22,618 bases of DNA from a virus (taxonomy: Duplodnaviria; Heunggongvirae; Uroviricota; Caudoviricetes): positions 1 through 22,618 of IMG/VR virus record IMGVR_UViG_2695420809_000016; one strand, written 5' to 3'. Positions 4,356 to 19,366 of this stretch are shown one piece after another (the first letter of the stretch is position 1; each line of letters begins with the position of its first letter). The position numbers were made by a program, and so were the translations under genes. Under the pieces are notes generated by a model. That model was given only the letters and a program-made list of their open reading frames with translations, had not been told where the DNA came from and did not search any database.

Positions 4356-4438
4356 GCATGTGAGATTGCACAATATATAAAAGTTATGCTATCTGGATTC
4401 ATTTGTAGAACTACCAGACAACATTCAAGGAGAGCGTA

Positions 4439-5224
4439 ATGGTCAGCTATAATGTGACTAATGTGTGGGGGCTAATCGTTTTTTTCCTTTGTAGCTTTGC
4501 AGTATTAGCATTTTTTAGCTTTGGTAAAAGTAACCTTATGAGGCTTATTGCACATTATTTCAATTTTGGATATTCAGACAAAAAATTAAAAAGACTGGAC
4601 CGCGAGTGGCGCGACATTCAACTATTTAAAATACTTAACGGAATCAATGTATCAGGCATCGAAGATGTGAGAATGATACAGCAGGGGCTGATTGATGGAA
4701 AACTAAAAACATCGTATTTTTTCCTTACTCGCATCTGGGGTGACATAACAAAAACACCACACATAATTAAAACAATAATCGTAATTCCGGCCAGTATTAT
4801 TTATATTCTCTTCGCATGCTACATACACAATGAACAATCCGCTATAGTAAGGGATGCCATAGGTATACCATATAAAAATATGATGTACTATGTTTATAGT
4901 GACAAAGTTCTTTTATCCTTCAAAAATAAAACAGTTGAATTTAATAAAACTTATAGCCTTGCCGATTGCAAGACCCTGCAAAACGTATTTATAAAAGACA
5001 CACTCCCTGAAATCGCCTGCAATAAGCTCTTACAGCTAAACGAGGAGGACTCCGAATGGTTAAGTCAGGAGATTAAAGATAATAACAGCCACAGAAAAAC
5101 ATTATTAATAATATCCCTAACCTATTTCATTTCAGGTCTGCTTATATTCCTGTCATATACAAAATTCCTTTACGCCAATAAGAAGGTTTTAGAATACAAA
5201 GCATCAAATAAAAACCACTCATAA
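4439..5224 (+). CDS. Hypothetical membrane protein (about 3 predicted TM helices), AT-rich cargo gene at the P2 orf30 position
   Basis: 261-aa ORF on the strand opposite to the flanking tail genes. Strong SD (AAGGAGAG) about 7 nt before the ATG. Hydrophobic segments GLIVFFLCSFAVLAFFSF, IIKTIIVIPASIIYILFACYI and LLIISLTYFISGLLIFLSY. AT-rich by eye compared with the backbone. Confidence 0.75.
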   Translation: MVSYNVTNVWGLIVFFLCSFAVLAFFSFGKSNLMRLIAHYFNFGYSDKKLKRLDREWRDIQLFKILNGINVSGIEDVRMIQQGLIDGKLKTSYFFLTRIWGDITKTPHIIKTIIVIPASIIYILFACYIHNEQSAIVRDAIGIPYKNMMYYVYSDKVLLSFKNKTVEFNKTYSLADCKTLQNVFIKDTLPEIACNKLLQLNEEDSEWLSQEIKDNNSHRKTLLIISLTYFISGLLIFLSYTKFLYANKKVLEYKASNKNHS

Positions 5225-5230
5225 ACCTCT

Positions 5231-5265
5231 AAACATTGAGCGACCAGCACGGCCGCTCAATGTTT
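5231..5265. terminator. Perfect 12-bp inverted repeat (AAACATTGAGCG, 11-nt loop, CGCTCAATGTTT) between convergent genes; likely bidirectional terminator
   Basis: Read directly from the sequence at 5231..5242 and 5254..5265. It lies between the stop of the 4439..5224 ORF and the stop of S. Flanking T-tracts are weak. Confidence 0.45.
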
Positions 5266-5295
5266 AATTGCGCATCAGCCTCTGCCTGGATAAAA

Positions 5296-11669: not shown

Positions 11670-13442
11670 ATGACCATCACCACAGACACCACTCTTTTAC
11701 ACGACCCGCGTCGTCAGGCGGCGCTGCTGTACTGGCAGGGATTTTCCGTGCCGCAGATTGCCGCCATGTTGCAGATGAAACGCCCGACGGTGCAGAGCTG
11801 GAAACAGCGCGACGGCTGGGACAGCGTTGCCCCCATCAGCCGTGTCGAAATGAGTCTGGAAGCGCGACTGACCCAGCTCATCATCAAACCGCAGAAAACC
11901 GGCGGTGACTTCAAGGAAATTGACCTGCTCGGACGCCAGATTGAACGACTGGCGCGGGTCAACCGCTACAGTCAGACCGGCAACGAGGCAGACCTTAATC
12001 CGAACGTCGCTAACCGCAACAAAGGCGGGCGTCGCAAACCGAAAAAGAATTTTTTCAGTGACGAAGCCATCGAAAAGCTGGAGCAGATTTTCTTTGAGCA
12101 GTCTTTCGACTATCAGTTGCACTGGTATCGCGCCGGGCTTGAGCACCGCATCCGCGATATCCTGAAATCCCGCCAGATTGGCGCGACGTTTTATTTTTCC
12201 CGCGAGGCGCTGCTGCGCGCCCTGAAAACCGGCCATAACCAGATTTTTCTGTCGGCCAGTAAAACGCAGGCGTATGTGTTCCGCGAATACATCATCGCCT
12301 TTGCCCGTCTGGTTGACGTTGACCTGACCGGTGACCCGATTGTCCTGGGCAATAACGGCGCAAAACTAATTTTTCTCGGCACCAACTCCAACACCGCACA
12401 GAGCCATAACGGCGACCTGTACGTCGACGAGATTTTCTGGATCCCGAATTTTCAGGTACTGCGTAAGGTGGCATCAGGTATGGCCTCACAGAGTCACCTG
12501 CGCTCGACCTATTTCTCCACCCCGTCCACGCTGGCGCACGACGCCTACCCGTTCTGGTCGGGTGAACTGTTCAACCGGGGACGCGCCAGCGCCGTCGAAC
12601 GCGTGGAAATCGACGTCAGTCATAACGCCCTTGCCGGTGGGCTTCTCTGTGCGGACGGCCAGTGGCGGCAGATTGTCACCATTGAGGACGCGCTGAAAGG
12701 CGGCTGCACGCTGTTCGACATTGAGCAGCTCAAACGTGAAAACAGCGCCGACGATTTTAAAAACCTGTTCATGTGTGAATTTGTTGACGACAAGGCGTCG
12801 GTGTTCCCGTTCGAGGAGCTGCAACGCTGCATGGTCGACACGCTGGAAGAATGGGAAGACTATGCGCCGTTTGCCGCGAATCCGTTCGGCTCCCGCCCGG
12901 TATGGATTGGTTACGACCCGTCACACCGTGGCGACAGTGCCGGATGCGTGGTGCTGGCACCGCCGGTGGTGGCCGGAGGTAAATTCAGAATACTTGAGCG
13001 TCACCAGTGGAAAGGCATGGACTTTGCCACCCAGGCTGAATCCATCCGCAAACTCACCGAAAAATACAACGTCGAATACATCGGAATTGATGCCACCGGC
13101 CTCGGTGTCGGCGTGTTCCAGCTCGTGCGCTCGTTCTATCCCGCCGCGCGCGACATCCGCTACACGCCGGAAATGAAAACCGCAATGGTGCTCAAGGCAA
13201 AAGACGTCATCCGCCGTGGCTGTCTGGAATATGACGTCAGCGCCACCGACATCACCAGCTCGTTTATGGCTATCCGCAAGACCATGACCAGCAGCGGACG
13301 CAGCGCCACCTATGAGGCCAGCCGCAGCGAGGAAGCCAGCCACGCCGACCTCGCCTGGGCGACCATGCACGCCCTGTTAAATGAGCCACTCACCGCGGGT
13401 ATCAGCACTCCGCTGACATCCACCATTCTGGAGTTTTACTGA
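11670..13442 (+). CDS. P: Terminase ATPase (large) subunit gpP
   Basis: ATG at 11670 preceded by GAGG. Product starts MTITTDTTLLHDPRRQAALLYWQGFSVPQIAAM...; 590 aa, the expected gpP size. Confidence 0.95.
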   Translation: MTITTDTTLLHDPRRQAALLYWQGFSVPQIAAMLQMKRPTVQSWKQRDGWDSVAPISRVEMSLEARLTQLIIKPQKTGGDFKEIDLLGRQIERLARVNRYSQTGNEADLNPNVANRNKGGRRKPKKNFFSDEAIEKLEQIFFEQSFDYQLHWYRAGLEHRIRDILKSRQIGATFYFSREALLRALKTGHNQIFLSASKTQAYVFREYIIAFARLVDVDLTGDPIVLGNNGAKLIFLGTNSNTAQSHNGDLYVDEIFWIPNFQVLRKVASGMASQSHLRSTYFSTPSTLAHDAYPFWSGELFNRGRASAVERVEIDVSHNALAGGLLCADGQWRQIVTIEDALKGGCTLFDIEQLKRENSADDFKNLFMCEFVDDKASVFPFEELQRCMVDTLEEWEDYAPFAANPFGSRPVWIGYDPSHRGDSAGCVVLAPPVVAGGKFRILERHQWKGMDFATQAESIRKLTEKYNVEYIGIDATGLGVGVFQLVRSFYPAARDIRYTPEMKTAMVLKAKDVIRRGCLEYDVSATDITSSFMAIRKTMTSSGRSATYEASRSEEASHADLAWATMHALLNEPLTAGISTPLTSTILEFY

Positions 13443-14476
13443 TGAGCAAGAAAAAAGGGAAAACACCGCGACCAGCGGCAAAAAAAATGACCGCCAGCGC
13501 CCCGAAAATGGAGGCATTCACCTTTGGTGAACCGGTGCCGGTACTCGACCGCCGTGACATTCTGGATTACGTCGAGTGCATCAGTAACGGCAGATGGTAT
13601 GAGCCGCCGGTCAGCTTTACCGGTCTGGCAAAAAGCCTGCGTGCTGCCGTACATCACAGCTCACCGATTTACGTCAAACGTAATATTCTGGCTTCAACGT
13701 TTATTCCGCACCCGTGGCTTTCCCAGCAGGATTTCAGCCGCTTTGTGCTGGATTTTCTGGTGTTCGGTAATGCGTTTCTGGAAAAGCGTTACAGCACCAC
13801 TGGTAAGGTCATCAGACTGGAAACCTCACCGGCAAAATATACCCGCCGTGGCGTGGAAGAGGATGTTTACTGGTGGGTGCCGTCCTTCAACGAGCCGACA
13901 CCTTTCGCGCCCGGCTCCGTGTTTCACCTGCTGGAGCCGGATATTAATCAGGAGCTGTACGGTCTGCCGGAATATCTCAGCGCCCTTAACTCTGCCTGGC
14001 TGAATGAGTCGGCCACGCTGTTTCGCCGCAAGTATTACGAAAACGGCGCGCATGCCGGATACATCATGTACGTCACCGATGCCGTGCAGGACCGCAACGA
14101 TATCGAAATGCTTCGCGAAAACATGGTGAAGTCGAAAGGCCGCAATAACTTTAAAAACCTGTTTCTCTATGCCCCACAGGGGAAAGCCGACGGCATTAAA
14201 ATTATCCCGCTCAGTGAAGTGGCGACGAAGGACGATTTTTTTAATATCAAAAAAGCCAGCGCCGCTGACCTGCTGGACGCGCACCGCATCCCCTTTCAGT
14301 TGATGGGCGGCAAGCCGGAGAACGTCGGGTCGCTGGGTGATATTGAGAAAGTGGCAAAGGTCTTTGTCCGCAATGAGCTTATCCCGCTACAGGACAGGAT
14401 TCGGGAAATAAACGGCTGGCTCGGTCAGGAAGTCATCCGCTTTAAAAACTACTCTCTGGACACTGACAACGACTGA
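13442..14476 (+). CDS. Q: Portal protein gpQ
   Basis: 344 aa, same length as P2 gpQ; start overlaps the P stop; followed by a terminator and cos. Confidence 0.95.
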   Translation: MSKKKGKTPRPAAKKMTASAPKMEAFTFGEPVPVLDRRDILDYVECISNGRWYEPPVSFTGLAKSLRAAVHHSSPIYVKRNILASTFIPHPWLSQQDFSRFVLDFLVFGNAFLEKRYSTTGKVIRLETSPAKYTRRGVEEDVYWWVPSFNEPTPFAPGSVFHLLEPDINQELYGLPEYLSALNSAWLNESATLFRRKYYENGAHAGYIMYVTDAVQDRNDIEMLRENMVKSKGRNNFKNLFLYAPQGKADGIKIIPLSEVATKDDFFNIKKASAADLLDAHRIPFQLMGGKPENVGSLGDIEKVAKVFVRNELIPLQDRIREINGWLGQEVIRFKNYSLDTDND

Positions 14477-14645: not shown

Positions 14646-14664
14646 GTGCTTTCCCCGCCTCGCC
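14646..14664. other. cos site (19-nt cohesive-end sequence, P2 type)
   Basis: The sequence GTGCTTTCCCCGCCTCGCC is the reverse complement of the P2 cohesive end GGCGAGGCGGGGAAAGCAC as I recall it, and it sits where expected, just beyond Q. Confidence 0.8.
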
Positions 14665-14810
14665 CGCCCGCTTCGTGGGGCTGTTTTAATGCAGTTGCAT
14701 GAACACTCCAAGAGCACGCCAGCACTGGCGGCGCTCACACGTAACGGGGAAGGAAAACGCATGCGATTCGATGCAGTACTGCATGCAGAGCTGAAAAAGG
14801 CAGAAAATAC

Positions 14811-14850
14811 TGAAAAAACGCATAAAAAACCGGCATTCAGGTTACCGGTT
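14811..14850 (-). terminator. Candidate minus-strand rho-independent terminator between the cargo island and cos
   Basis: AACCGG / CCGGTT stem (14828..14833 and 14845..14850). On the minus strand it is followed by a T-rich run (complement of TGAAAAAACGCATAAAAA). Confidence 0.45.
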
Positions 14851-14978
14851 TGAGTCAGCTTCATTGTGGTTACTTGTCGCGCAATGCGCCAATAATACTA
14901 GTAAGGCAACAAGTGGCAACAATCAGCAAAAAAACCGTTGTCCACGGATTCTCATAAACGAGAGATAACATATTGATA

Positions 14979-15005
14979 TTGATCCTTTTATTGGTACATT
15001 ATAAT
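14979..15005 (+). promoter_or_regulatory. Candidate sigma70 promoter in the AT-rich island
   Basis: Perfect TATAAT at 15000..15005 with TTGATC 15 bp upstream (TTGATA 21 bp upstream). The spacing is not ideal, so this is tentative. Confidence 0.3.
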
Positions 15006-15372
15006 GCGATATTATCGGTCTTTAACAACTTGGCTGAGTTCTATCTTACCAATTTTCGTGATAAGCATTTAATCAATTACGTAGTATGGTTAAAGGCACA
15101 CAAAGGAGAAAAATATGCGAATGCATTTTTTAGACAACCGACTTCCAAAAATCTTTTCAACGTAATACAAAAAAATTACAAACATCTATCAATTACAAAT
15201 TAACAAATATCAACACTACCAGCTTAATTGCAGCAAATATCAGGAGATAACATCACTACAACAATAAATCAAAAACTGTTAGATTTGGCCAGAAATGCCA
15301 ACTCCACACATAACTTCACGCAGATACATAGTTCATAATTAAACAATTTATCGACTTGGAGCGAATAGAATA

Positions 15373-16377
15373 ATGTCAAAAGAAAACACACCAATGGAAC
15401 CAAGCATAAATATAAAGGCAGACTTCACTGAGATATTAAATTCATCGCCAAAGGGCGTTAAGTATATATTCAATATTCTCTTCGGAAAAAAACACGCAGA
15501 GGCCGAGAGAAGGATTAGGCTATCGAACGCTCAAGATTATGCAGATATGAAAAAAATCATATCTGGAGAAGCAACATATGATAATGAGAAGAACCAAATA
15601 ACACCTTCTAACCAAGACATTAAGTCATTAATTGTTAGCGCATTGCAGGATGAGGAAATTACAAATCTTATAGGCTGCATCAGAAGCGCCTCAGAATACA
15701 TTAAAGATGATACTGATAACGATGGTGGTCCATCCCAAGACTTTATTAACAGATGGCGAAGCGATGCGAAACTAATCAGTGAACAGTCTATCCAGTACGT
15801 TTGGGGGCGAATTCTAGCGGAAGAAATAAACACACCTCAAACTGTAAGCGTAAGAACCCTTGATGTAATAAAAAACCTATCAAAAGAAGAGGCTGAATAT
15901 TTCTCAGAGGCACTTGACTTTATATTTTACGATTCTTATTTGATTGATAATGGAGATACCAAAAATCCATTCATCTCACCAGAAAAAGGTCATAAATTGA
16001 GAGATGCAGGATTAATAGTTACTTTTACTCCTGGAATGTATCGCTCCGGGACATGGGATACACAACGTTTTGTTCTCAGCGGAGCCACCATACCAAAAGT
16101 ATTCTACATCAGCAGTTCTGATAAGTATTACTTTATCGATGCAGGCAAAATAACTGACGACCCTAAAATTCTGGTATGGGAGTTAACAAATGCCGGCAAA
16201 GAATTATATGAAATTCTAAAGAAAGATCATAAAACCAAAGAAGAATCAGTAAAAAAAATTATTGACTGGATATTAAATAGCACTAAAGCTTCTGAGTTTT
16301 ACTATGGAGATATTGTTAAGCATTCAGACAATAGTCTGTCAGTTGAGAACTTACTGACTATAAGCAGAAATAGATAG
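15373..16377 (+). CDS. Hypothetical acidic protein (334 aa), cargo gene at the cos–A junction (P2 tin/old hotspot position); candidate anti-phage or accessory function
   Basis: Long ATG-initiated ORF in an AT-rich island, opposite in orientation to the early operon, with GGAG upstream. No Walker A, HNH or obvious PD-(D/E)xK motif seen by eye. I do not recognise the family. Confidence 0.8.
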   Translation: MSKENTPMEPSINIKADFTEILNSSPKGVKYIFNILFGKKHAEAERRIRLSNAQDYADMKKIISGEATYDNEKNQITPSNQDIKSLIVSALQDEEITNLIGCIRSASEYIKDDTDNDGGPSQDFINRWRSDAKLISEQSIQYVWGRILAEEINTPQTVSVRTLDVIKNLSKEEAEYFSEALDFIFYDSYLIDNGDTKNPFISPEKGHKLRDAGLIVTFTPGMYRSGTWDTQRFVLSGATIPKVFYISSSDKYYFIDAGKITDDPKILVWELTNAGKELYEILKKDHKTKEESVKKIIDWILNSTKASEFYYGDIVKHSDNSLSVENLLTISRNR

Positions 16378-16682
16378 AACATTAAAACAAGACCCCATAT
16401 CTAATCAGTATGCGAACAGGCAAGAACATCCGTTTTTGTCTGTTCCTTTCAAAACAACTACCCGCATCTCCATAATACTAAAAGATATTTTCCTTTTATT
16501 CAAACCCACAATAATGTTTACGCTCAATAATAAAAAACATCAGAATATTTTTTAACTCCTACACAGCTTGTTTCTCAATCCCGTTGTGTATATCATCAGG
16601 ACCAAGACATTTCACACCAGTGTTATCCATCACTTGTTCAGAAATCATCGCTACTTTTATGACAGAGTAGTGACTCTATATA

Positions 16683-16889
16683 CTAAGAATTACGACCACC
16701 CTTATTATCCTGACTTTCATCAATAAAGAAAATAATACCGCCAGCTTTATCTCTTGGTGAATAAGGAGGGCCAGTGCTAACCAGATAACTGCCTATATGA
16801 ATTAACTTGTTGTCATTAGCTCCACTCCATTTCTGTTGAATACCCCGGCCACTCATCAGCGACCGCATAACTGAATTTTTTCTCGCCAT
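16683..16889 (-). CDS. Small hypothetical ORF overlapping the 3' end of gene A (P2 orf91 position)
   Basis: 68-aa ORF downstream of and partly overlapping A (A stop at 16816). Position corresponds to orf91 of P2, but I do not recognise the sequence; it may be spurious. Confidence 0.3.
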   Translation of the reverse strand: MARKNSVMRSLMSGRGIQQKWSGANDNKLIHIGSYLVSTGPPYSPRDKAGGIIFFIDESQDNKGGRNS

Positions 16890-19101
16890 ATATCACCGTT
16901 GCACCTCGCGTCAGCGCCTCAAGCTCCCATCGCTGCGGTCTGATACCGTTCTGAGCAAGGTCAACGCGGATAGGGATGATTTGCAATCGTTCAGACCTGG
17001 TCAGTCTGGCCGATGGTGCAATTTCATGTGGTTTTAACGGGCTTCCGTTTCTCTGCTGACGATTTGGTGTTCTCAGCCCGTATTTTAATGCGCCCCTGAG
17101 CGCCCTCACGACCTCCGGGTCATTCCATTCGATAACACCGTCATCAACCAGATTAAGCACTGCTGCGGCGTGCTCAGAAGGCGTGGGAGCCGGTAACGAA
17201 GTATTACCACCGGTGAGCTTTCCACAGTTATTGACAGGACTCCGAGGCGCGGCGATGCCGCTTTTTAAAGTCAAAGGCTCAACGACCGGAACTTTCGGCA
17301 CAATGCGCCAGTCCGTCGTTCTGGTGATATGAATATGACGCGCGCCGAGATGCGGCGCGTAAATGCCGACCACTCTCTCGACTTCTTCCTCGTACTCGTT
17401 AACGTCATCCGACGGGCTACGGGCAACCCTGACAGTCTGACAATCGCGCGGGACATTTGCCCCACCCTGCGCGCTGATATACAACGCAAAATCACCACTG
17501 TCTGCGGCAGCGCGAGCAGCCTCGACGCGTTCGTCAAACTCATCAGCAATACTGACGCCGCGAGGCAATTTGCGTAGTTCACGGTAAGCCCCCATTGTCG
17601 GCAGGCCAACCGTTTTAAATTGCGGAATTCGCCACGTTGACGCCCATGCGGTAACAGCCGCAGCAGTATCTTTCAGCGGCCTGCCGGTATCATTATCGAG
17701 CTGACCATCCAGTGCGTAGCCATCGATGTTTTTTGAGATGTATTTTGCGATATACCCCGCAGCACCGCCCCGGTTAAGATGTTTTGCCTGAAAACGGTTT
17801 CGCGCGGCTCCTCTTTCGTCGCCATCCTCTTTGAGCGCATAGCGACGCATGATTTCGATAATCTGGTTACGCTGGCGTGGATTACAAAAAAGCATCATAT
17901 GCCAGTGCGGCGTTCCGTCGTGGTGTGGCTCGACGACACGCAAACCGTAGACCTGTAAATCATTATCCTTGAATGCCGTGCGCATCAGGCTCCAGATATG
18001 GCAGAGATAACGCTGCGCATCCTTTGGATTAAATGCCTCATCGTTCCAGCCGTGATTTAGCTGGACGGTTTTACTTTCGCCTTTTCCGACCTGACGTGTC
18101 GGGTGATACTTTGACGGCGCGGTAAGCGTGATAAACATCCCCACATCACCCTCTGCGGCGGCGTAACGCTCAATACCGGCAATGGTGTTCATCAGCTCCA
18201 TCCGGCGAATTTCAGGATTAGAAATACTGCCCATCACCTTACTGATAAGGTCGATGCGTTCGCCGGTTTCCCTGTTTTCAAGGTCACACGATTTAAGAAA
18301 TTCCAGATTTGCCTGGCGGCGTGCACGCACATCACGAATGGCATGTTTACTGGCATAAGGAGAACGGCCTTTATTGACCTCCCCGACAGCAATCAGTAAC
18401 GCCTCATGCCAGCGCATACGCTGGCCTTTAAGCTGATGGGTCCACCACTCATCGTTAAACAGACGGGCAATGGCAGAATATGCCTGCCTCGTGGTCATCT
18501 GCCCTTTACGGTATTTTTTCCAGTAGAGAGGGGAAATATTGAAAGCACGTGCAGCACCAGCAACATGACCATAGAGGTGAGCCTGCGCCTCATCCGTAAA
18601 CAGCGATTCTTTTTCGCCATGCGCATCCACCCAGGCATCGCAGAGTTCCTCATACATCATGAAAAGCTGCGATGAGATACGGGCGGCAAACTTTTTCAGC
18701 TCCTTATCATTCATCCCCGGCAGACGCGCATAATGGTCACGTTCTGCCAGAAACAGCAACGACGCGTCGGTGTTCATTTCATGGCGCTGATTCACGCGCT
18801 CAATGCGCGGCCATAAACGACGCTGAAAAGTGGATGTGAGGAAATAAAACCCGTGCACCGGGCTTTTATTGCGCCGGATGTAGTCATAGCGTGAAGTAAA
18901 CAGCGAGCGCAAAAAGTAAGGCAGACGGTTAATCGTGGATAAAACACCTTGCACCTGACGCATCTCGTCACGTGTAAGGGGTCTTTCGCGCCCGACGGCC
19001 TCGCGTGGCGCGTTCCATGCATAAGCACCGGTAAACGCCTTACCGGTGCCTGCGGCAAATGCTGACGGAGGGACAAAACGCCCGGAGGCTTTAACGGCCA
19101 T
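16816..19101 (-). CDS. A: Replication initiation protein gpA (rolling-circle initiator)
   Basis: The ATG at 19101..19099 gives MAVKASGRFVPPSAFAAGTGK...; 761 aa, the expected gpA size. The ORF-track start at 19143 is a TTG. Last gene of the early operon. Confidence 0.95.
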   Translation of the reverse strand: MAVKASGRFVPPSAFAAGTGKAFTGAYAWNAPREAVGRERPLTRDEMRQVQGVLSTINRLPYFLRSLFTSRYDYIRRNKSPVHGFYFLTSTFQRRLWPRIERVNQRHEMNTDASLLFLAERDHYARLPGMNDKELKKFAARISSQLFMMYEELCDAWVDAHGEKESLFTDEAQAHLYGHVAGAARAFNISPLYWKKYRKGQMTTRQAYSAIARLFNDEWWTHQLKGQRMRWHEALLIAVGEVNKGRSPYASKHAIRDVRARRQANLEFLKSCDLENRETGERIDLISKVMGSISNPEIRRMELMNTIAGIERYAAAEGDVGMFITLTAPSKYHPTRQVGKGESKTVQLNHGWNDEAFNPKDAQRYLCHIWSLMRTAFKDNDLQVYGLRVVEPHHDGTPHWHMMLFCNPRQRNQIIEIMRRYALKEDGDERGAARNRFQAKHLNRGGAAGYIAKYISKNIDGYALDGQLDNDTGRPLKDTAAAVTAWASTWRIPQFKTVGLPTMGAYRELRKLPRGVSIADEFDERVEAARAAADSGDFALYISAQGGANVPRDCQTVRVARSPSDDVNEYEEEVERVVGIYAPHLGARHIHITRTTDWRIVPKVPVVEPLTLKSGIAAPRSPVNNCGKLTGGNTSLPAPTPSEHAAAVLNLVDDGVIEWNDPEVVRALRGALKYGLRTPNRQQRNGSPLKPHEIAPSARLTRSERLQIIPIRVDLAQNGIRPQRWELEALTRGATVIYGEKKFSYAVADEWPGYSTEMEWS

Positions 19102-19366
19102 GTGAGCCAAAAGCCTCTGAACAACGCTTGCTGAGTTGCTCAACCTGCGCGTTTAAATCAGCAAAAGACTTTGCGCTTCCGGTAAGGATATCGTGATGCA
19201 CCAGACCGGAAACGAGCTGGCTTAATTTCGGGTAATAACCAACCACCGCCAGCCATTCCTGACCGGCGTTTTTACCGCTTTCAGCTCTCTTTTTCTCGTG
19301 GAGAATAAACTGAAAGCTGTCACTGGTAACAACATAACGTTCGCCAATTTCAATACGAATACTCAT
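19091..19366 (-). CDS. Hypothetical early protein (P2 orf83 position)
   Basis: 91-aa ORF immediately upstream of A in the early operon, overlapping the A start by about 11 nt. Confidence 0.6.
   Translation of the reverse strand: MSIRIEIGERYVVTSDSFQFILHEKKRAESGKNAGQEWLAVVGYYPKLSQLVSGLVHHDILTGSAKSFADLNAQVEQLSKRCSEAFGSHGR

Follow-up and report, generated by a model that had tools for sequence, protein, structure and literature searches.

Introduction

Belisama is a single-gene anti-phage cassette of the chromosomal integron of Vibrio cholerae N16961, with DUF2806 as its sole domain, and was found by Darracq et al. in a screen of V. cholerae integron cassettes (bioRxiv 10.1101/2024.07.02.601686). 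It confers phage resistance, with "strong and unrecoverable culture lysis" at a multiplicity of infection (MOI) of 10, proved toxic enough to require reduced induction, and has homologues in 70 genera (bioRxiv 10.1101/2024.07.02.601686). The present work concerns another gene of the DUF2806 family, located at positions 15373..16377 on the + strand of the IMG/VR record IMGVR_UViG_2695420809_000016, a P2-like prophage whose whole 22,618-nucleotide (nt) stretch is referred to below as the window. This gene is the only conserved cargo of an AT-rich island between the cos site and gene A, and it probably serves the lysogen as a defence against other phages, by abortive infection (Abi).

A more remote point of comparison is Abi-alpha (EF2833), encoded by prophage 6 of Enterococcus faecalis V583, which was shown by Lossouarn et al. 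to abort infection by phage Idefix, with death of the host and lysis about 10 min early (PMC6356687). A similarity of Abi-alpha to PF10987, the Pfam entry of DUF2806, was noted by these authors (PMC6356687), and this remote link has been reported in two papers. The locus, for its part, was defined as a defense hotspot of P2-like prophages, under the name gpA-gpQ/cos, by Rousset et al. (PMC9122126), in agreement with the original prediction made from the sequence of the window, which had placed the gene at a documented hotspot. Table S5 of that study lists an E. coli P2 hotspot locus composed of "RVT_1 + hypothetical + DUF2806" (WP_001591815), which was left untested (PMC9122126). The literature already describes the DUF2806 family, points to its anti-phage potential and places it in P2 hotspots, and the gene described here does not constitute a new class of system; it is a somewhat divergent DUF2806 member in a known hotspot.

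The DUF2806 Gene and Its Product

The open reading frame (ORF) 15373..16377 had been singled out as the one substantial ATG-initiated ORF of the interval, and it is indeed the sole ORF of more than 100 amino acids (aa) there, convergent with gene A. Its 334 codons are intact, without indels or stops, in 8 independent loci, and the ratio of nonsynonymous to synonymous substitution rates (dN/dS) is 0.08-0.15 at dS >1; between the Salmonella-type and the Enterobacter-type copies, dS reached 1.2-1.8 and dN/dS 0.08-0.11. Because the ORF has stayed intact in these loci with such low ratios, it is, on the evidence of sequence conservation, a real gene under purifying selection. A GGAG motif is found 11 nt upstream of the ATG.

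The original prediction had assigned the protein to no known family and proposed it as an undescribed defence or exclusion function. Neither the lack of a family nor the label of undescribed is supported, as the protein is a clear member of Pfam DUF2806 (PF10987), scoring 68.9 bits (E 7e-19) where the gathering threshold is 24.5, and a 99%-identical protein is already named "DUF2806 domain-containing protein [Salmonella enterica]" at NCBI, while the family has both a validated anti-phage member, Belisama, and the reported remote link to Abi-alpha. The matched part comprises residues 96-183 and positions 15-101 of the 221-position profile. Outside this part, the DAGL motif (211-214) and residues L271 and G275 show at least 90% conservation in the alignment of the family, and the family profile aligns over its full length (about 5-330) to hundreds of representatives. 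All 46 aligned homologues match DUF2806. The NCBIfam model TIGR03899 gave a partial match, with 58.1 bits, under its cut-off of 155.65.

The product is a predicted soluble, acidic protein of 38 kDa (isoelectric point 5.2), in which no transmembrane segment was found (maximum 19-residue hydropathy 0.93), nor any signal peptide, enzyme or metabolic domain. Its AlphaFold2 model has a predicted local distance difference test score of 79 overall, and above 90 for residues 170-330. It comprises low-confidence helices at residues 1-65, a conserved helical core at residues ~83-183 and a confident alpha/beta domain at residues ~185-334. A Foldseek search against BFVD returned a single unnamed viral protein of 229 aa (E 4e-9).

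Comparison With Belisama and Abi-alpha

The window gene has the architecture of Belisama, that is, a single stand-alone gene whose product contains DUF2806 as sole recognisable domain, a likeness drawn from domain content. Each also resides on a mobile or accessory locus and belongs to a family with a wide distribution in Pseudomonadota. They differ in their carrier, which is an integron cassette for Belisama and a P2 prophage hotspot here, in their size, as the gene called Belisama in Oceanimonas is 819 bp long (~272 aa) against 334 aa in the window, and in the divergent C-terminal half of the window protein, whose match to the Pfam model is confined to the first half of that model. Desulfovibrio piger harbours, in a Mu-like prophage, a homologue that is 32% identical over 83% of the query (P0072); a Belisama system has been reported by DefenseFinder on a prophage of this species, which fits the homologue and may be the same gene.

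Abi-alpha (Pfam PF14337, formerly DUF4393) and the window protein are both single prophage-encoded proteins of about 270-330 aa, without known catalytic domain. Sub-threshold matches to Pfam Abi_alpha were given by 14 of the 46 aligned homologues (best E 7.8e-5); those inspected individually all scored 15-18 bits, short of the gathering score of 29, and in one of the homologues (P0055) the Abi_alpha and DUF2806 matches are collinear. Abi-alpha differs by its Gram-positive host, and the matches of the DUF2806 family to it are all below the Pfam threshold, so that the relation with the window protein is at best one of superfamily level. The "Abi_alpha" of E. coli P2 hotspot system 141 was also considered as a relative and was rejected, as it corresponds to the LPO_1073/Vpar_1526 family (PF28206), for which hhalign gave a probability of 0.6% and an E of 0.096 against the window family (A1 vs A5).

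The E. coli locus of Table S5, compared by its description, shares with the window the presence of DUF2806 in a gpA-gpQ hotspot within a P2-like prophage. It differs in that DUF2806 accompanies a reverse transcriptase, while the window gene stands alone.

Cargo in the cos-Gene A Hotspot

The order Q, cos, island and gene A, as originally described, was recovered. The portal gene Q (13442..14476, + strand) is followed by a terminator-like hairpin, and the 19-nt P2/P4 cohesive-end sequence GGCGAGGCGGGGAAAGCAC is present at 14646..14664 (- strand), as a single occurrence with 0 mismatches where none would be expected by chance, and it aligns with cosR of the P2 reference. Gene A (16816..19143, - strand) bounds the hotspot on the right; it is 96% identical to an E. 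coli "replication endonuclease", and its L001 orthologue has a Phage_GPA Pfam domain. Between cos and gene A, the predicted AT-rich insert was clearly apparent, with a G+C content (GC) of 0.35 against 0.53-0.55 in the flanks: GC was 0.350 over 15007-16815 (0.352 over 14865-16815), 0.547 left of cos and 0.532 in gene A. Outside the island, no other segment of the same length in the 22.6-kb sequence had a GC below 0.44.

The extent of this cargo, first placed at 14865-16815 (~1.9 kb), must be corrected on its left side. Among 5,426 complete E. coli genomes, the closest DNA covers positions 14700-15006 only, with 90-95% identity to E. coli P2-like prophages, in line with a cos-proximal arm (14665..15006, GC 0.45) that belongs to the phage backbone, and a multiple alignment with E. 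coli P2-like prophages of other cargo showed that this homology stops at ~15006. Since prophages with other cargo share the backbone up to that point, the true cargo spans about 15007..16815 (~1.8 kb), a part for which the earlier delimitation stands, whereas 14865-15006 is conserved backbone containing an ORF of 33 aa. The cargo DNA had no match in the same 5,426 genomes, distant blastn mode included, and a search of phage records in near (megablast) mode matched the cos-proximal backbone of the wider query and not the cargo. Flanking repeats and Rfam families, sought as signs of a transposon-like or RNA element, were not found in the island. The island is accessory cargo in the cos-gene A hotspot of a P2-like prophage, the host of which is most likely Salmonella.

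In the P2 reference, this slot is occupied by old and tin, as had been stated. Their mRNA starts ~150 nt from cosR and reads toward gene A, with the same polarity as the window gene. The window gene is similar to old and tin in its transcription, which runs away from cos, toward A, and converges with that of the early operon, in its foreign base composition and in being dispensable for the phage. It has no sequence or domain relationship with them, Old being an ATPase-Toprim nuclease and the window carrying one gene of another family; it gave no Pfam, NCBIfam or PADLOC match to OLD-family nucleases (ATPase plus Toprim) or to Tin, in accordance with the earlier exclusion of both.

Close Relatives and the DUF2806 Family at Large

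All sequences at least 72% identical to the window protein and with readable flanks were located in the same portal-cos-gene A slot, in the same orientation. They comprise Salmonella loci L001 and L002 and Enterobacter loci L003-L006, from NCBI and Logan, and eight IMG/VR P2-like contigs (L026-L033). The fullest loci have the order portal, 33-aa ORF, DUF2806 gene and gene A, the shorter contigs being partial. Between the window and Enterobacter, identity was 78% for the DUF2806 protein, 81% for Q and 74% for A, and this parallel between cargo and backbone indicates that the gene has long been resident in the slot. In L033, gene A is just 37% identical, yet the DUF2806 gene occupies the same slot in the same orientation, and the cassette has therefore moved between backbones as well.

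The slot is otherwise variable. In those E. coli prophages whose cos arm is closest to that of the window, it holds a retron-type reverse transcriptase and a helix-turn-helix (HTH) gene, and in phage SEN1 it holds tum and dinI. The window gene, placed between portal, cos and gene A in a slot whose content varies among similar phages, is indeed a P2 hotspot cargo. In L026 (3010-5498) and L028 (3204-5561), some 2.4 kb of extra DNA separates the portal gene from the 33-aa ORF, against ~0.4 kb in the window, which suggests a further variable segment around cos.

Whether the gene always travels in this slot, a survey proposed by the original prediction, depends on distance: the close copies do, while distant homologues, 26-45% identical, sit on other accessory DNA. 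A DUF2806 homologue is carried by the D. piger Mu-like prophage, with tandem paralogues in one case, another by the end of a Yersinia HP1-like prophage adjoining rpoD, and two plasmids carry such genes as well. In Achromobacter, the homologue lies beside VbhA and a SIR2-HerA pair, and in Pseudomonas putida and in a metagenome contig homologues lie next to resolvases. The tandem D. piger genes (L023; 6783-7778 and 8001-8960, encoding 331 and 319 aa) are located between the repressor region and the late genes, and a related contig (L022) has one copy. A scan of species-representative genomes with a narrower alignment returned 9 loci, none of them in Vibrio.

The family as a whole is very large: a profile search of 1.84 billion representatives retrieved 8,283 clusters at E<=1e-3, of which 1,420 at E<=1e-30. 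As the best-scoring members are mostly 300-350 aa long and aligned end to end, a stand-alone architecture is the norm. In IncX4 plasmids, the mcr-1.1-pap2 cassette is inserted in a pre-existing DUF2806 gene (PMC8221240), so that a possible DUF2806 defence gene is routinely disrupted in these colistin-resistance plasmids.

Proposed Function and Alternative Explanations

Defence is the best reading of the gene, in keeping with the original prediction. We consider it probable that the prophage carries here a one-protein anti-phage system of the Belisama/Abi-alpha type, acting by abortive infection, and the same activity may extend to the whole hotspot DUF2806 clade. The present analysis provides the location, the family, the purifying selection, the association of the clade with the hotspot and the mobile or defence context of distant homologues; anti-phage activity, collapse at high MOI and over-expression toxicity come from the literature on Belisama, and early lysis and death from that on Abi-alpha. 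In the proposed scheme, the AT-rich leader of the gene would drive its expression in the lysogen, in the direction from cos to gene A as for old and tin, infection by another phage would trigger the protein, and the triggered protein would kill or lyse the cell prematurely, ahead of progeny maturation, thereby protecting the clonal population that carries the prophage. The helical core (with E95, N98, R127, Q141, W144, E151, S159, R161, T162 and D164) may be the shared module, while the divergent C-terminal alpha/beta, winged-helix-like domain (DAGL 211-214, LTxAG 271-275) may set what is sensed; the sensing step itself is hypothetical.

Several observations weigh against defence by abortive infection. 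No effector-like domain, transmembrane segment or structural analogue, including among solved structures, was found for the 334-aa protein, and the killing step is therefore wholly hypothetical. The Pfam match ends at position 101 of 221 and leaves a divergent C-terminal half, no match to Abi_alpha (PF14337) was obtained for the window protein at E<=1, and none at all in PHROGs. Of the database checks proposed at the outset, Pfam gave the family, and PADLOC v2 gave noise-level matches only (E 0.004), the match to PDC-S39 reaching 13.8 bits over 100 of 595 profile positions. A promoter scan found a best match of 9/12 at 14973-15002, no better than in shuffled sequence. Residence in the hotspot is suggestive only as evidence of defence, given that 3 of 8 further cloned P2 hotspot systems were active (PMC9122126). 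A more specific version of the proposal, in which the hotspot DUF2806 clade would form a distinct branch of a very large, enzyme-free abortive-infection superfamily uniting DUF2806 and Abi-alpha, with a C-terminal domain recognising phage nucleic acid or protein and a core triggering premature lysis without solved structural precedent, is put forward tentatively and is rather unlikely.

The leading alternative, although improbable, is exclusion or regulation without killing: with an HTH-like core and a winged-helix-like C-terminus, the protein could bind nucleic acid and block the replication, transcription or packaging of a phage or of a satellite such as P4. Less probable again is a lysogenic-conversion gene with a role directed to the host (stress tolerance, colonisation or competition), riding in a permissive site. 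Such a role would be in line with the inactivity of most cloned hotspot systems in the published screen (PMC9122126), with the non-defence genes tum and dinI in the SEN1 slot and with the status of a DUF2806 gene as a conserved backbone gene of IncX4 plasmids; the family is however enriched in prophages, defence-island neighbourhoods and integron cassettes, one of its members is directly anti-phage, and the window protein shows neither the export or membrane signals nor the metabolic domain that were looked for. A role in the development of the phage itself, such as lysis timing, packaging near cos or replication control, would suit a gene that lies beside cos and has diverged together with Q and A, but it is very unlikely, in that closely related backbones lack the gene and have others in the slot, homologues exist outside phages, by resolvases or chromosomal defence genes, and the GC of 0.35 against 0.53 marks a foreign origin. 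A non-functional relic, which the visible decay of the adjacent small gene after A might evoke, is effectively excluded by 334 codons kept without indels in 8 loci and by a dN/dS of ~0.1 at saturating dS.

Should the gene prove active in defence, the DUF2806/Belisama family would gain a second validated carrier type, the P2 prophage hotspot, together with a divergent clade. It would also offer a tractable enterobacterial model, consisting of a single gene with its native leader in a context of well-understood P2 genetics, of how a common family of Abi proteins senses infection and kills.

Leader, Small ORFs and Second Island

The gene is preceded by an AT-rich 5' leader (15007..15372, + strand, GC 0.32). 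In an alignment of 7 loci (A6), the first ~70 nt of the cargo leader are conserved in all DUF2806-carrying loci. An element of ~60 nt at 15017-15075 (GGTCTTTAACAA..TG...GAGTT.TA.CTTACCAA) is kept in all of them, including L033 despite its very different backbone, and is absent from the E. coli retron-carrying prophage; it may have a regulatory role and move together with the gene.

The ORF of 33 aa upstream of the island (14870..14971, - strand; MLSLVYENPWTTVFLLIVATCCLTSIIGALRDK) is hydrophobic and could encode a small membrane peptide. It is a backbone element that lies next to cos in prophages of Salmonella, Enterobacter and E. coli whatever the cargo, and also in phages SEN1, SW9, SI22, FSLSP004 and Midge and in several Klebsiella P2-likes (P2/186-like). 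It has no match in PHROGs and is often left unannotated.

The spacer of 438 nt between the DUF2806 gene and gene A contains the decaying remnant of a small gene (16560..16815, - strand; ...PRDKAGGIIFFIDES...), recognised by comparison with the Enterobacter loci L003 and L005, in which the ORF is intact and encodes 56 aa. Its start is lost in the window and stop codons interrupt it in L028 and L029; no homologue was found in the phage collection and no match in Pfam. An earlier occupant of the slot may have left it as a relic. Candidates for a second cargo gene were rejected, namely the TTG-initiated ORF of 76 aa (14973..15203) and other small ORFs, which are not conserved, and the ORF of 68 aa overlapping the end of gene A, which is the decayed remnant. 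With the 33-aa ORF belonging to the backbone and the downstream ORF decayed, no second conserved gene remains and the cargo consists of a single gene.

A second AT-rich island was observed at 4400-5290, between two minus-strand late genes (GC 0.32-0.38 against 0.55-0.61 in its flanks), in what we take to be the orf30 slot between V and S of P2. Its sole ORF (4439..5224, + strand, 261 aa), opposite to the late genes, had no match in Pfam or PADLOC. It matched phrog_2407, annotated as "unknown function", over its full length (E 4e-145), and it is another cargo gene.

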